Part shown: positions 3,001-12,000 of the stretch, piece by piece
Layout: the number at the start of each line of letters is the position of its first letter
Position numbering within the stretch: position 1 is the first letter of the stretch
Assembly: GCA_963825055.1 (NCBI GenBank)
Contig: CAWGSK010000030.1
Span: 1-64,000, forward strand
Origin: an uncultured Gemmatimonadales bacterium
Lineage (GTDB): Bacteria; Gemmatimonadota; Gemmatimonadetes; Gemmatimonadales; GWC2-71-9
DNA length: 64,000 nt
Direction of reading: 5' to 3'
Made by a program: the position numbers

Positions 3001-6000
3001 TGTTGATCCGGGACAGGGCGGAGTAGAGCGTCGTCGTCTTGCCGGAACCCGTCGGGCCGGTGACCAGCACCATGCCGTACGGGTTCAGGATGGCCCGCAT
3101 GAGGTCCGCCTCGGCCTTGGGCTCGAAGCCGAACTTGCTGAGGTCGAGCGTCAGGTTTCCCTTGTCAAGGATACGCATGACGATCTTCTCACCGAACAGC
3201 ACCGGCAGGGTGGAGACACGGAAATCGATCACCCGGCGGCCCATCTTGAGCTTGAGGCGGCCGTCCTGCGGCACGCGTCGCTCGGCAATGTTCAGGTTCG
3301 AGAGAATCTTCACCCGCGAGGTGAGGGCGGCCTTCATCTTGATGGGCGGCTTCATGACCTCGAGCAGGGCGCCGTCGATGCGGTATCGCACCCGCAGTTC
3401 GTGCTCAAAGGGCTCGATGTGGATATCGCTCGCGCCGCGCTTCACGGCATCCGTGAGCAGGCCGTTGATCAGCTTGACCACCGGCGCGTCGTCGATCTGC
3501 GCCTGGGTCGGACCCTCTTCCTCGTGTTCCTCGAGAATTTCGACGTCCTCGTCCATCCCCTCCATGTCCTTGAGGAGGGACTGGAGCTCGAGGTCGCCCG
3601 ATTCGTAGTGCTTCTCGATCAGGGTCTTGAGGGTGTATTCACCGGCGATGACGGGAAACAGGTCATAGCGCGTAATGAACTTCAGGTCCTCGATCAGCCC
3701 GGTGTTGGACGGCTCGGCCATCGCGATGGTCAGCGTCCGCCCCTCGCGCTTGAGCGGCAGGACGGTGTGGCGGACGGCGAAATCGGGCGGGATGAGCTTG
3801 ATGATCTTCGGGTCGACCTCGAACCGCGAGAGATCGACGGCCGGCATGCGGTACTGGCGGGCCAGGAGCTTGGTAATGTCAACCTCGGACACGAAACCGA
3901 GCTTGACCAGCGTATAGCCCAGGCGATGCCCCGACGAGCGCTGCTCCTGCAGCGCCTGAGCAAGCTGCTCCCGGGTGATCAGACCTTCCCGGATCAGGAT
4001 GTCGCCAAGCCGGTCGACCCCGGCTGCTGCCGCCATGGTTGCCATCGCCACTCTGCTGGAAACCCAGTTCAAGGATTTGCACGTTCCGGCAGGACCTCGG
4101 CAAAAGCCCGGGTCGCCCTACGGGGTGGTGAAATCCAGCCGATATTCGAAAGTCTTTATCAGGTTTGCACTTACGCCTGGGACTTCCGCCAAGTCACTTG
4201 CTTCTGTGAAAAATCCATGCCGCCCCCGCCAGGCCAGGATGGCCTTCGCCCGGGCCGGCCCGATTCCGGGCAGGGCCCGGAGCTCCCGCGCACCCGCCAG
4301 GTTTATCCGGACCAGGCTGTCAGACAACAGATGGAGCAACGAATCGGCCACCCCGGCCAGGAGGCGACCGGAAAGGCCGGAGAACGTGACATGGGGCCTG
4401 AGGCGCTCCAGGGTGCGGGGACCGATTCCCGGTACGCGATCAAGCCCCTCCAGGGCCCTGAAGGGCCCATTGGCCTGCCGGTCGGCCACGATACGCCGGG
4501 CCAGGGCGAGGCTGACCCGTGGCAGCCGGGCCAGTTCCCGGTCCGGGGCGCGGTCCACGTCCACCAGTTCGCCGGGGGCCAGCGGCCGGAAGGTCTCATG
4601 GATCAGAGCGGCCTGGGCTGCCGCAGAATGCGCCGGGGTGGCGGAAAGCAACTGCAGGTCTCCCGGCGGGCTTCCGGGCCGGTCGACCCAGAGCCGGACC
4701 CCCTGGCCGGCTGCTGCGAGGGCCAGCAACAGGAGGATCATCCGCCGCTCGGAGGCTTTCATGGGACCAATCTGGACCCGGAACGCAAAGGCCCCCGCCA
4801 CGCGAACATGCGGGCGGGGGCCGGAAACGGCAGGACCTTCCTCCGGGGTCAGCCCCCGGCGGCCGCCTTCCGGAGGATGTACATCGCTACGTCGCCGACC
4901 TTCGCCAGGCTCTCCCCGCTCAGCTTATCAATCGTGTCGTCCTTCGTGTGCCAGTACGGATAGTCAAAATCGAGGACGTCAATCGCGCTGATCCCCACCT
5001 CCTGCAGGGAGATGTGGTCATCCGTGATGGGATACTTCGGGTCGGCCAGGAAGTACTGTCCGTATCCAAGGGCCCGGGCCGCGCCGGTCACCCGGTCCAC
5101 GACCTCGGGGGCCGCGATAACCGAGTAGCTCTCGGCGTGGATCTGGAGATCCTTGTCGCCCACCATGTCCCAGAGGATCGCGAACGCAGGCTTCTGATTC
5201 CCCGGGAGATGCTGCGCGTAGTACTTCGAGCCGATGAGAACATCGGGGCCGGGAAACTCGCCGTAGTCCTCCCCGTCCACGAACAGCAGGTCGACCCCGA
5301 TGCCTGTCGGCTTCGCCTTCAGGACGTCGGCGACCCCGAGCAGGATCGCGACCCCGGAGGCGCCGTCGTTGGCACCCGGCACCGCGAGGGAGGAGTCCTT
5401 CGAGTTCGGGCCATCCGCCGTGGGGCGGGTGTCGTAGTGGGCGAGATAGAGCACCCGCTTCTCCGCGGCCGGATTAAAGCGGGCGATGAAGTTCTTGAGG
5501 CGCAGAGTATCACCCTGGCGGGTGACATGGTCCCAGGCCTGGACGACGACGGTATCCGCCCGCGTCCGCAGCAGGGAGTCGAGCCACTCCTGCATCCGCA
5601 CGTGGCCGGCCGTCCCGGGAATCCTCGGTCCGAAGGCCATCTGGGCCCGGGCGTATTCCATCGCCCCCGCGCCGTCGAACTCATGCTGCGGGATGGCGTC
5701 TCCGCAGGAGGCGAGGACCAGCGCCAGGGCGAGGGTCACGAGTCGTCGAACGGGCATGCCACCTCGCGTGACCACCGTATCGCTACCGGTAGTCGGCCGA
5801 ATAGAAGAATATCTGCGCCGTGATACTCAGGAAAATCGTCGAGATCCGGCGGTTCAGGTGCCGGGCGTCGTTCAGCGAGTAGCCGAAGTTCAGGCCGCCC
5901 GTCATGATCTTGCTGATGTCCGCGTTCAGGCTGCCGCGCAACTCCCGGCCCCGGGTGTCGGAAATCGTGAGGCAGCCTTCATCATCACGCCGCTGCAGGC

Positions 6001-9000: not shown

Positions 9001-12000
9001 CGTCCACCGCCGCGTTGAAGATGCCGGTCGGTTCGCGTTCGGAATCCAGTTTCCCAACACCCTCATAGGCCCGGCCGGTGTAGGTGGTATCGGCGCCGGA
9101 AACGGTGAAACTGTCCGGCGCGATGGCCAGGGCATCCTCGTTCACCCCCCCCAGGTCGATCACCAGCCGGACCCCGGCGGAATCGGCGCTCCGGGTGGAG
9201 GGCTGGAAGACCCAGAATTCGAGGAACTCCGTCCGGGAGAGGTCGAGCCCCGTCGAGCTCAGCGAGGTGACCATCGAGCGCCACCGCGGCGTGAACGGCA
9301 GGGACGGGAGGGACCACCGGCTGGAGTTGTTCGACTGGACCACGCCCCCCGCCGTGTCGGCGTGGAGCGTCAGGTACATCACGGTCTCGTTCTGGGTGCC
9401 GGTGCCCACCACCCGGATGAGCGTATCGATGTCCTGGGGCCGGATTTCCACGGCGCCACCCCGGCCGTCGGGAATGAAGTTCTGCCAGGTCAGGGCCACC
9501 GCAGCCGAGGAATCGAAGCCGGCGGCAAACGACGGAATCTCCACGTCCAGCCCGGCTGCGCTCTGCGGCCGGCTCCCGAACTGCCACTGGTTCTCCCTGA
9601 GCCCGACCGGCACGCCGGCATCGGCCTCGAATTCCTCCAGGTACGCCGCGCCGGCCCGGTTCGGGTCCGGCTTGGTGAAGGCGAATTCCGCCTTCACGTC
9701 CAGCCGGGAGGGGGCCGTGGCCCCGCCGGTGGTCCACCGGTCCAGCAGGCGCGTAATGCCGTTGGGCTGGAAGGTGAGGTCAGTGTTGATCCCGCCGACC
9801 AGCGTGGCTGACGGCTCGAACCCCAGCGGCGGCCGGTTGTACGCGGAAGACTCGAACTGGTAGATCCCGATCAGGTTGACCCCGCCGGTCCGCCCGAGGG
9901 AATAGCGGGTACTTGCCCCCAGGATGGTGGTAGGGGCAATGGCGAACACTCCGCGTTCCTCGAACCGCGCCTGGACCTGGGTGCTCCCCGCGCCGAAGAG
10001 CTGGTCCGGGTTGAGGAAGGTCACCCGGCCGATGTCGTAGTCGATGGAATAGTCGATGCCCCGCTCGAGGACCCGTCCCCCGGCGGTGATCTGTTCGCTG
10101 CCCTCCCGGATCTGGAGGGCATTCAGGTCCAGGTTGGAGCGGTCGCCCGTGCTGGCGGCGTTATACTGCAGTCGCAGCAGGAACTTGGCGGTCGGGCCCT
10201 CGGAGAGCAGCAGGAATTCCGGCGTGCGGTACAGTGAATCCGACCGCTCCTGCGGTGCCAGTTGCGGGGAGGCAAAGGGCTGGAGGCTGGGAAAGACGAT
10301 GTACGACTCCCGCACCACCTGCTCCGCGCCCGGATCCTGGATCCGCGGGAAAAGCCGGTTCTGCACGTCGAAAATGTTGTCGTCCGTGGGAATCGCGAGC
10401 CCGAGGAGCGACAAGTACGTGCCCTGGCCCGAAACCGGCGTTTTGGTCTGGTTGACCGTCAGGTCCACGTCAAGGGAGTTGCGGTCCAGGTCGGCGCCGG
10501 CGACCCGGTAGATCTGCCGCATCTCGTAACGGAAGGTGGGTTTGTCGGGAGTCTGTCGCGCCTCGACGATGAGTTCCAGTGTGTCCGATACGGCCTGGTT
10601 GGCCACCAGCGGGTACGTGCCTACGGTATCACCCGCAGCCGTGATGTAGCTGACGGCGAGATAGTCGTTCCGGTCCAGTCGTGAGGAAAGCACGAACCAG
10701 AGCGCCGAGGCATCCAGGAAATAATCCGTACCCTGGATCAGCAGTTCCCATTGTGCCACCTGCTGCTGGTTGCTGTCCTCGCGCCGGGCCACGGCGTTGA
10801 TGCCCCCGATATTCGGGTTGATCGTGCTTCCCGACGTGGCCGCCCGGTAGCGGTAGACCTGGACCTGGACCGGGCGGGAGGATGCCGGCACGTTCGACCG
10901 GTTCAGGTTCAGGATATCGAGTGACGGGTAGCCGGGGACCACTGACGGATCGATGACCCAGAAGAACCGCCCCACCTCGAAGTCGAGGTCGCGCACCAGC
11001 CGGTCCTGCGGCTGGGTGACCTCCGAGCCGATGGTGAAGGTCCGGTTGGCCACGGAGCTCCCCTTCTGCTGGGCGGCAATCGTCTGGATCTGGAGGGGGC
11101 CGACCTCAAAGCTGGCGTTGACCCCGAAGTTGTTGGCCGGGATGGCCGCCGTGATGAAGCGGGAGGCGGGCGGGCGGAAGGTCACCGTGCCAACCTCGAC
11201 CCGGCGGACGATTTCGTCCTCCAGGCCCTGATAGTAGACCTGGATGTCGTTGCGGCCCGTGAAGTCCCGTTCGGAGCTGTAATCGATGTTGATGTGCAGT
11301 CGCTGGCCGATCACCCCGCCGGAGAGAATATTGAACTGGTTGTCCAGCCTGGGCGCGGTGAACCCCCCCCGGCAGCCTGACGACAGGTCGACCAGGGCGG
11401 CGGCCGTGCAGCGCTCGTTCCGGGTCCGGTCGGTCCGGAGCTCGAGCGTGGCCGAACCGTCAATCGTGAGGTCCGCGTACTTTGGAGACAGGCCCAGGAA
11501 GCCCTGACGCTGTGGCTGGAGCGCCGCCAGGGCATCCCGGCGATCATCCGCCGCGGTGCGACCGTATATGCTCTGGAGCCGCAGGGTAAGCGCCCGGTTG
11601 GCCCGAGCCGAGTCCAGGGTGGCCACGAGCGTGCTGTCCCAGAGGGCCGCGCGGGCCGCCGGCAACATCCTGGGGGCGCCGAACCAGGGCGCATCGATGA
11701 CGGGGGGACGCACCAGCCGGAGGGGCTGGACCCGGAACTGGAACCATGGCGGAACGACGCTGTCCGCCTGGGCGGAAAGCGTGGCCGGCAGGAGTGCCAG
11801 GCAGGACAGGGCGGCCAGACAGCGGCTCGCGCGAAGCAGTCGAGGCGAAATCAGAGTCAGGGGACGAGTGGGTTCATGAATATAGTGACGGCTGAAACCC
11901 CTTACAACCAAGGTACTTAGCCAGATGCGACTGCTCGACCGCTACCTCCTGCGGCAACTGGTCGCGCCCTTCCTGTTCAGCCTGGCGGCGCTCACCAGCA

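Follow-up and report, generated by a model that had tools for sequence, protein, structure and literature searches.

The window (the whole 64,000-nucleotide stretch analysed here, from an uncultured Gemmatimonadales bacterium) raises the question of how a type 9 secretion system (T9SS) might operate when the proteins that power it elsewhere are not recognised. The gene that raises it is the following:

5783..11911, minus strand: sprA/sov, T9SS outer-membrane translocon, 2042 aa with a TTG start; matches to TIGR04189, PF14349 and 6H3I_A

Judged by its sequence, this ORF encodes a genuine SprA/Sov translocon, in line with the SprA/Sov-like protein of this length reported by the first-pass annotation. 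The product reached 505.2 bits against TIGR04189 (the NCBIfam SprA equivalog, cut-off 200) and 57.1 bits against Pfam SprA_N (PF14349), and it matched 6H3I_A, the solved SprA of F. johnsoniae, at E 5e-31. The earlier remark that SprA matches weakly (60 bits) had taken up the Pfam score only. The signal peptide was predicted to end in ATLSA, followed by Q. TIGR04189 matches begin at model position 365, and the first ~380 residues did not match the N-terminus of the model.

The neighbours of sprA are:

4849..5775, minus strand: glutaminyl-cyclase-type lipoprotein with an M28 fold, PF04389, lipobox LASC, 7 nt downstream of sprA
4118..4801, minus strand, as sprA: ComEA-like helix-hairpin-helix protein, HHH_3 and TIGR00426
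2330-4072, minus strand: pilB, TIGR02538 757 bits
1206-2333, minus strand: pilT, TIGR01420 494 bits
3-1190, minus strand: pilC, T2SSF, truncated by the contig end
11925-13490, plus strand, divergent from sprA: lptF, long form of 521 aa, PF03739
13454-14569, plus strand, divergent from sprA: lptG, PF03739

The closest solved structures to the lipoprotein are two glutamine cyclotransferases, 6QRO_A at E 1.9e-49 and 6QQL_A at E 7e-45, and its gene stood immediately 3' of sprA in all 60 Gemmatimonadales loci with enough flank. Together, sprA, the cyclase-like gene, comEA, pilB, pilT and pilC occupy one strand in this order, with gaps of at most 47 nt. Among 21 diverse loci, the PilC-PilT-PilB block lay beside sprA in nine and the ComEA-like family adjoined it in seven. 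The divergent sprA/lptF-lptG arrangement was found in 74/74 Gemmatimonadales loci, 16 of the 21 diverse loci and 9/18 loci from Bacteroidota-phylum genomes without a GldM match, and in 0/9 loci of Bacteroidia. Both arrangements could be taken to mean that SprA has been turned to another envelope use, linked to LPS export, the type IV pilus or DNA uptake. However, synteny alone does not show a shared function, LptF/G (11925..14569) is the single housekeeping pair of the genome, and the co-occurrence of PorV, cargo with a C-terminal domain (CTD) and, in deep families, PorU points to secretion. We regard this reading as unlikely.

The genome encodes two PorV/PorQ-family barrels, one of them within the window, and a PorX-type regulator; both had been claimed and both were recovered. 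The regulator lies on contig C9:

C9:44687-46255, minus strand: PorX, REC-PglZ-type regulator; NF052313 526 bits, cut-off 300

SprA exceeded the TIGR04189 cut-off in 120/151 Gemmatimonadota genomes, which agrees with its claimed presence in most of 40 other genomes of the phylum, and the PorV family was found at E<=1e-10 in 125/151. Both occurred in 118 of the 151 genomes, SprA alone in 2, PorV alone in 7 (4 of these weak, E 1e-12 to 1e-14) and neither in 24. The CTD (E<=1e-4) was detected in 46 genomes, all of them SprA-positive; the SprA-negative genomes had no PorV match in 24/31 cases and no CTD match in 31/31. In many genomes of family f1, sprA and the PorV gene share a contig, 15-20 kb apart. 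Besides PorU, the deep-branching families f10-f12 have 4-13 PorV-like barrels, and their CTD proteins number at least 21-35; phylum profile searches found no GldKLMN in them. The parts of the module co-occur across the phylum, and the outer-membrane module of SprA, PorV-like carriers, CTD cargo and PorX is genuine.

The cargo is encoded in a cassette on the minus strand:

31916..35236, minus strand: TonB-dependent barrel (CarboxypepD_reg and Plug domain matches), first cassette gene
27965..31846, minus strand: cargo, 1293 aa, type-A-like CTD in the last 110 aa (27968-28297)
26771..27892, minus strand: PorV/PorQ-family barrel, carrier or anchor, 373 aa; NF033709 147.6 bits, cut-off 90
25270..26760, minus strand: GWxTD protein, last conserved cassette gene; TIGR04514 78.9 bits
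23539..25257, minus strand: IPT/PPC-domain protein at the cassette end, weak PPC and TIG matches

The order TonB-like barrel, cargo, PorV and GWxTD protein given by the first-pass annotation was borne out at 25270-35236 and in a second copy on contig C18, whose DNA is 80-94% identical to that of the window cassette and whose flanks are unrelated. In the TonB-dependent barrel an N-terminal DSVVVVG stretch precedes the plug domain. Against TIGR04183 (cut-off 23) the cargo CTD fell short in hmmscan (19.4 bits) and passed in the genome search (26.1 bits), and against CHU_C it gave E 3.7e-4. The cargo tails scored best against the C-terminus of the PorZ model (E 1e-7 to 2e-7; 2e-7 for the window cargo), and the CTD motifs were kept in 19 sequences. 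A jackhmmer search seeded with the cargo tail returned exactly five of the 2834 called proteins, the same five that had been said to share one CTD. The accompanying description of a very small cargo set is right for this class and fails for families f10-f12, with their PorU and many CTD proteins.

The PorV-like barrel matched PorV chain 6H3I_F at E 6.7e-5, and a PorV-like gene followed the cargo tail in 19/20 other genomes. When the barrel (residues 27-373) was modelled with the CTD, ipSAE was 0.89, compared with 0.01 for the best of three controls; contact agreement was at least 87% and partner pLDDT at least 79. This ipSAE mark was reached by 116/157 solved pairs and 2/215 mismatched pairs. 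Since a comparable complex had already been solved, the model indicates likeness to it. The GWxTD protein was predicted to fold into two Ig-like domains and a C-terminal GWxTD domain (pLDDT 87); it occurs in 131/151 genomes of the phylum, SprA-negative ones among them, and is no strict SprA partner. An NCBIfam search with the IPT/PPC-domain protein gave no match. The conserved order of barrel, cargo, PorV and GWxTD genes would also suit a giant cargo exported through its own TonB-dependent barrel, with the PorV-like barrel as anchor only and SprA serving other clients, and the Oar/PopC pair of Myxococcus is a precedent for such export. However, PorV and the CTD disappear together with SprA, and the tail, a type-A-like CTD of the T9SS kind, was modelled on the PorV loops in the way known from the solved translocon; we consider export through the cassette's own barrel unlikely.

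What then could power the pore? In the own genome, a MAG that is 87% complete and 6% contaminated, GldL TIGR03513 gave a best E of 0.07, GldM TIGR03517 had no match, and of the GldK/GldN ring models TIGR03523 had none and TIGR03525 scored 29 bits (cut-off 350). Custom GldK/L/M/N profiles were built from 20 Bacteroidia gldKLMN operons and run on 46,096 six-frame ORFs. With --max, the best E values for GldL and GldM were 0.29 and 2.2, and their conserved transmembrane segments likewise had no match. With default filters, the GldN profile matched nothing, and the sole match of the GldK profile (54 bits) was the single FGE-sulfatase frame of the genome (C15:94079-96097), putatively EgtB as in the first-pass annotation. 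Only two MotA/ExbB-family loci are present, an ExbB-ExbD x3-TonB cluster and Tol-Pal. Two topology scans for a divergent GldL/GldM pair (a 2-TM protein with a bitopic one next in line) yielded 10 candidates, none of which was kept. Annotation of the three first-scan candidates and of the TM2-domain pairs of the second scan gave M23 peptidase/DUF6789, BlaR1-HEAT, GH97 and TM2-domain plus M16 peptidase; the others were rejected on sequence. Inspection of 33 loci showed no such pair in the vicinity of sprA, porU-porV or the cargo cassettes. As far as profiles can tell, the genome encodes no recognisable GldK, GldL, GldM or GldN. A motor could sit in the missing part of the MAG, though 149 high-quality relatives are also without a GldKLMN match.

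Across the 151 Gemmatimonadota genomes, neither GldL, GldM, GldK, GldN nor GldL_N (PF22827) exceeded its cut-off, the best GldK score being 111.7 bits. The reported absence of GldL and GldM here and in relatives is upheld as non-detection, now in a larger sample and with GldK and GldN added. The further proposal that the phylum runs SprA-PorV with another energy source is not supported in that form: it was drawn from absence, with GldKLMN profiles that were all built from Bacteroidia and that, in the phylum searches, scored only candidates let through by a loose first-look pre-filter. In the controls, GldL was above cut-off in 5/5 Bacteroidia genomes, GldK, GldL and GldL_N were each found in 0/5 genomes outside Bacteroidia, and PorU NF033707 had no match in Flagellimonas, a false negative unless that genome has no PorU. 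Because one positive control failed, the evidence for motor absence is soft, and a cryptic divergent motor stays a live rival: a distant GldL/GldM-like or unrelated proton-driven pair, missed by Bacteroidia-trained profiles, would drive a normal T9SS. Two GldM models found no match in 66/96 SprA-positive genomes sampled from the Bacteroidota phylum, and five such genomes had no GldK, GldL or GldL_N match either. The motor-less pattern is thus neither peculiar to Gemmatimonadota, as had been suggested, nor proven loss. Divergence would also be more economical than wholesale loss in so many lineages whose SprA scores strongly (up to 2630 bits), and it would suit the PorU and large cargo sets of f10-f12. 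Moreover, a strongly conserved PorX is retained, and PorX binds PorL in P. gingivalis. Against a diverged motor stand the empty profile search of the own genome, even at the transmembrane segments, the outcome of both topology scans and the 33 loci without a pair. We hold such a motor to be possible but doubtful.

The SprA-PorV translocon of F. johnsoniae (PDB 6H3I; Lauber et al., 2024, PMC10994853) resembles the present system in its orthologous giant barrel, PorV-family partner and type-A-like CTD cargo, which here was modelled on the PorV loops. It is different in the first ~380 SprA residues and in its GldL/GldM motor and GldK/GldN ring, not detectable here. The pairing of sprA with lptFG and the cyclase-like gene was not seen in the nine Bacteroidia loci. 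In the P. gingivalis attachment complex, PorZ pairs with PorQ and PorU with PorV, and an uncleaved CTD stays on the PorV/PorQ-family barrel. The PorZ-like score of our cargo tails is similar; however, the cargo here is neither PorZ nor PorU, every barrel gene adjoins that of its cargo, and no PorU sortase was found in this class (genomes G000 and G063). Type B CTD cargo are said, from work by Gorasia and colleagues in 2022, to have dedicated PorP/SprF-like carriers encoded adjacent to them. One cargo with one adjacent carrier, then anchor, is shared with that system, whereas here a PorV/PorQ-family barrel acts as carrier and the tail is type-A-like; a local PorP profile had no match in the own genome. 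SprA, PorV, CTD cargo and PorX are shared with canonical Bacteroidia T9SS. Abby et al. (2016; PMC4793230) report the system in 60/97 Bacteroidetes and in no other clade, and their TXSScan model makes GldK, GldL, GldM and GldN mandatory, so the present system would fail the model as given there.

With somewhat more confidence than doubt, we favour a reduced type 9 route: a true SprA/Sov, PorV/PorQ-like barrels beside their own cargo, few cargo with type-A-like CTDs, and PorX, without recognisable GldKLMN. In this reduced route, Sec would carry the cargo over the inner membrane. An N-terminal Gln is exposed on many envelope proteins (among them SprA and the GWxTD protein, as well as the PorV-like and cassette barrels) and could be cyclised by the lipoprotein encoded behind sprA. 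The CTD would then dock on the loops of its own PorV-like barrel at the SprA pore, and barrel and cargo would exit sideways into the outer membrane. As no PorU sortase was found in this class, the tail is probably retained and the barrel would serve as surface anchor. Lauber et al. (2024; PMC10994853) place the energy requirement at the point where SprA lets go of the complex of carrier and substrate. In Bacteroidia, this extraction is driven through the GldL/GldM motor and the GldK/GldN ring. As a first guess, ExbB-ExbD-TonB may supply the energy through the TonB-dependent barrel that heads each cargo cassette; the tie between TonB and SprA is solely the operon membership of this barrel, in this class. 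The rich system of f10-f12 is hard to picture without power input, which counts against a motor-less reading. A pore, carriers, cargo tails and a regulator are encoded without recognisable forms of the four powering proteins of the studied systems, and this turns the energy supply of the pore into a testable question.

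The SprA-type translocon proposed in the first-pass annotation was borne out. Its gene and the neighbours discussed here are the following.

4849-5775, minus strand: glutaminyl-cyclase-type lipoprotein ('M28 peptidase'), 7 nt behind sprA; matched 6QRO_A at E 1.9e-49
5783-11911, minus strand: sprA, 2042 aa, with a signal peptide
11925-14569, plus strand: lptF-lptG, divergent from sprA across 11912-11924, the only such pair in the genome

The SprA protein scored 505.2 bits against the NCBIfam equivalog TIGR04189 (cut-off 200; 506.4 bits in the genome search) and matched the solved F. 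johnsoniae SprA in three stretches (6H3I_A and 6H3J_A, E 5.1e-31). The earlier statement that SprA itself matches weakly (60 bits) is true of the Pfam model only, where SprA_N gave 57.1 bits. The window is C30:1-64000 of a genome (G000) that comprises 3.53 Mb in 35 contigs and is 87% complete and 6% contaminated. Among the best 80 public relatives of the window's SprA, 79 were labelled Gemmatimonadota or its subgroups, mostly Gemmatimonadales MAGs. One of the 80 loci, with a SprA 55% identical to that of the window, lies on a contig labelled as a Bacillota MAG and is probably mis-binned.

The divergent sprA/lptF-lptG pair (comparison loci L243-L262 and L343-L362) was found in each of 74 Gemmatimonadales loci whose flanks were long enough, and in 16 of 21 diverse loci of 20 kb. 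It was also present in 9 of 18 loci from Bacteroidota-phylum genomes without a GldM match and in 0 of 9 Bacteroidia loci. The LptF beside sprA is long (458-521 aa), with a helix and a low-confidence insertion before TM4. A folded extra domain was rejected, as the model consisted of a normal LptF, a long helix and a low-confidence stretch of about 90 residues (pLDDT <50 at 327-366 and 370-384). For the lipoprotein, glutamine cyclotransferases were the best solved relatives, and the gene stood behind sprA in 60 of 60 loci. Beyond it follow comEA-like, pilB, pilT and pilC genes with gaps of at most 47 nt. The genes downstream of sprA in other lineages were mostly housekeeping genes, and PorX was directly behind sprA in 4 of the 18 loci of genomes without a GldM match. 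Signal peptides ending in A|Q are shared by SprA, the PorV-like barrel (with A25-Q26 invariant), the cassette barrels and the GWxTD protein. A crude scan of G000 covered 278 putative signal peptides, of which 56 have Q right after the first AxA; the background is 3%. This 'Q-rule' is described in a passage of PMC5837995 as Bacteroidetes-specific. Two further observations were made in the window. Adjacent ORFs at 21599-22078(+) and 22129-23409(+) divide one MsbA-like ABC exporter between them (the first has membrane domain positions 2-132, the second 151-270 and the ATPase), as a result of a gene split, a frameshift or a misassembly. At 19568-21568(+), a COX15/CtaA-like haem A synthase domain and a haem O synthase are fused in one ORF of 666 aa.

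The make-up of the cassette, namely a TonB-dependent barrel, a cargo, a PorV/PorQ-family barrel and a GWxTD protein, was as first described, and the genome was likewise found to encode PorX.

25270-35236, minus strand: cassette, containing the cargo of 1293 aa
C9:44687-46255, minus strand: porX, on another contig; NF052313 526.1 bits, cut-off 300

The cassette's carrier candidate scored 147.6 bits against NF033709 (cut-off 90) and missed both the PorV and the PorQ equivalog cut-offs, so that it corresponds to the PorV carrier of a canonical system at the level of the PorV/PorQ family. The cargo tail carries the usual type-A motifs VPDPYY, IRIYSSSGVLV and ASGVYFYHIE, conserved in 19 sequences. 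A genome search with TIGR04183 returned two frames at 26.1 bits (cut-off 23) plus weaker ones, and jackhmmer started from the cargo tail matched exactly 5 of 2834 called proteins, in agreement with the five tail-sharing proteins reported before. The second cassette, on contig C18, shares 80-94% DNA identity with the first while its flanks are unrelated, which makes a paralogue likelier than a co-binned strain. PorX is coupled to an MsbA-like ABC exporter, the two genes overlapping by start and stop codons (C9:42867-46255), and the pair adjoins glycosyl/heptosyl-transferase-like genes. This neighbourhood is a second link between T9SS and LPS genes. No match at E<=10 to PorP/SprF, the type B carrier, was obtained among the six-frame ORFs of G000 with a local profile of nine Bacteroidia PorP, one of which was checked (TIGR03519, 198 bits). 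The GWxTD protein was rejected as a strict hidden partner of SprA because it is present in 131 of 151 Gemmatimonadota genomes, many of them SprA-negative; the structure modelled for it (pLDDT 87) resembled nothing beyond generic Ig-like sandwiches, over residues 25-277, in a comparison that barely covered the C-terminal domain. A pair formed by a TM2-domain protein and an M16 peptidase of 919/920 aa is duplicated in G000 (C6:6148-9419 and C12:359353-362720), each copy no more than about 5-10 kb from the smaller CTD cargo genes.

When the PorV-like barrel was modelled with the cargo tail, the complex reached an ipSAE of 0.89, against 0.01 for the best of three controls, with contact agreement of at least 87% and partner pLDDT of at least 79. 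The ipSAE mark is reached by 116 of 157 solved pairs and by 2 of 215 mismatched pairs. The model thus predicts that the tail binds the barrel; since a like complex has already been solved (8GL6 series), its pass speaks for likeness and not for binding. Cargo would then exit SprA bound to its own PorV-like barrel, and may stay anchored by it, because the class of G000 appears to be without a sortase.

The phylum sample held 151 genomes, 149 of them of high quality, and every tally of 151 includes the unpublished G053; kin are not independent, so the counts describe the sample and are no test. SprA was above cut-off in 120 genomes and PorV-family genes (E<=1e-10) were found in 125. The two occurred together in 118 genomes and were both missing from 24, while 2 genomes had SprA only and 7 had PorV only (four of these weakly); 118 of the 120 SprA-positive genomes thus have a PorV-family gene. 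TIGR04183 tails (E<=1e-4) were detected in 46 genomes, all SprA-positive, and in 0 of 31 SprA-negative genomes. This joint loss of SprA, PorV and tails weakens two other explanations: that cargo is exported through the cassette barrel with SprA unrelated to it, which we consider very unlikely, and that SprA has a non-secretory role, which seems most improbable. The phylum falls into two tiers. In the deep-branching families f10-f12 (15 genomes), each genome has 4-13 PorV-like genes and from 21 to at least 35 tails, whereas the class of G000 has few or no detectable tails per genome. Accordingly, the 'very small cargo set' claimed earlier holds for the class of G000 and fails for f10-f12. PorU was found, in a porU-porV operon, in both f10-f12 genomes tested (G002, 572 bits; G006, 616 bits; cut-off 420). 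The sortase model NF033707 had no match in G000 or in G063 of the same class, a weak test given that the Flagellimonas control was also without a match. Behind the porU-porV operon of G006 (L293, G006:C6:64000-83999) and of G002 (L294, G002:C3:87000-106999) stands a conserved but unknown protein with a weak DUF5683 match. The genes after it encode, in G006, an NHL protein, a protein of 1092 aa that includes a SprA-like stretch (TIGR04189, E 6.7e-6) and then a BamA-like protein; in G002, a TPR and GWxTD protein comes next.

Current models hold the proton-driven GldLM motor and the GldKN ring to be indispensable for powering type 9 secretion. Library models detected neither in G000: the best E was 0.07 for GldL/PorL (TIGR03513), the best score for GldK/PorK was 29 bits (cut-off 350), and GldM/PorM (TIGR03517) and GldN/PorN gave nothing. 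Local profiles from 20 Bacteroidia gldKLMN operons were run on all 46,096 six-frame ORFs of at least 40 aa in G000. With filters off, the best E values were 0.29 for GldL and 2.2 for GldM; with default filters, GldK matched only one FGE-sulfatase frame (54 bits) and GldN nothing. None of the 151 Gemmatimonadota genomes was above cut-off for GldL (TIGR03513), GldL_N (PF22827), GldM, GldK or GldN, in searches that score only candidates passed by a loose first look. The earlier non-detection of a GldL/GldM motor in this genome and its relatives stands, within the reach of Bacteroidia-trained profiles. The best GldK score in the phylum was 111.7 bits (cut-off 350), and such matches were dismissed as generic FGE-sulfatase domains, which occur in SprA-negative genomes too. 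GldK-like FGE-sulfatase genes of f10 (about 426 aa, 124 bits) were also discarded, as they adjoin a 993-aa CTD cargo and not L/M/N-like genes. Compared with the canonical Bacteroidia system, G000 thus shares a PorV-family carrier, type A CTDs and PorX, but GldK, GldL, GldM, GldN, PorU and PorP/SprF were not detected in it.

As to controls, GldL was above cut-off in 5 of 5 Bacteroidia genomes, while the GldN library search had no positive genome in the control set, but 20 real GldN went into the local profile. In G151, a T9SS-bearing Flagellimonas, NF033707 found no PorU although GldL, GldM, SprA and 14 CTD frames were recovered, so a negative result obtained in this way may be false. The SprA-alignment route to other FCB phyla returned Gemmatimonadota for 79 of 80 loci and hence no GldKLMN positive control outside Bacteroidia. 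A motor too diverged for the profiles is possible, if on balance doubtful: the breadth of the non-detection and the cargo-rich deep families speak for it, whereas the exhaustive search of G000 was empty, as were topology scans for gene pairs in which a bitopic protein comes after a GldL-like 2-TM one. These yielded 3 and then 7 pairs, none motor-like (an M23 peptidase, a BlaR1-HEAT protein, GH97 and the TM2 and M16 peptidase pair by annotation, the rest dismissed from their sequences). A protein atlas search with Bacteroidia GldL, limited to unnamed clusters, gave scores of at most 0.81, all in Bacteroidota.

Beyond the phylum, a comparison set of 121 Bacteroidota-phylum genomes was drawn up around a named Flagellimonas genome. 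Of these, 96 had SprA above cut-off and 30 had GldM (the same 30 by TIGR03517 and PF12081), and the GldM models missed 66 of the 96 SprA-positive genomes. Five SprA-positive, GldM-negative genomes were also without GldK, GldL and GldL_N matches, indicating that the occurrence of SprA where no GldKLMN can be recognised is widespread. This fits two readings: the motor was added in Bacteroidia, or the profiles fail to see it outside that class.

As to energy, the MotA/ExbB family is represented in G000 by just two loci, the ExbB-ExbD x3-TonB cluster and Tol-Pal, and each cargo cassette starts with a TonB-dependent barrel; on these grounds TonB is our first guess. The proposed 'SprA-PorV pathway with another energy source' is thus sustained in its parts, co-occurrence and gene order, and not in its energy source, for which TonB is a mere guess. 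Rather unlikely, in our judgement, yet worth stating is that SprA, PorV-like carriers and CTD cargo are an old type 9 core that works without the GldLM/GldKN chain, a later Bacteroidia addition. Release of carrier and cargo would be spontaneous, or effected by a general envelope machine, either the ATP-driven Lpt bridge or ExbBD-TonB via the cassette barrels. In lineages of two phyla without GldM matches, sprA stands back to back with lptF-lptG, an arrangement absent from the nine Bacteroidia loci checked.

In the literature searched, supplements aside, we found no published account of SprA without GldKLMN. Abby et al., 2016 (PMC4793230) found T9SS in Bacteroidetes only, and the introduction of a 2024 paper (PMC11285876) states, giving no data there, that T9SS 'may also be present' in Gemmatimonadetes. 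Text from Bochtler et al., 2018 names a possible T9SS in Chlorobi, Fibrobacteres and Ignavibacteriae and has T9SS coincide phylogenetically with the Q-rule. The energy-requiring step, according to part of Lauber et al., 2024 (PMC10994853), is the one that pulls carrier and cargo out of SprA.

In sum, the observation stands, and its interpretation is supported in part. The module is a new variant of type 9 secretion. Gemmatimonas strains can be cultivated, so the motor question is testable. An entire phylum, like some other lineages, has retained SprA, carriers, a sortase and dozens of cargo proteins but shows no recognisable motor; hence either a motor family still awaits discovery, or the pore can run on other energy or none. 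The sprA/lptFG pairing and the cyclase-like gene are new leads on how secretion, LPS export and N-terminal pyroglutamate formation are linked.
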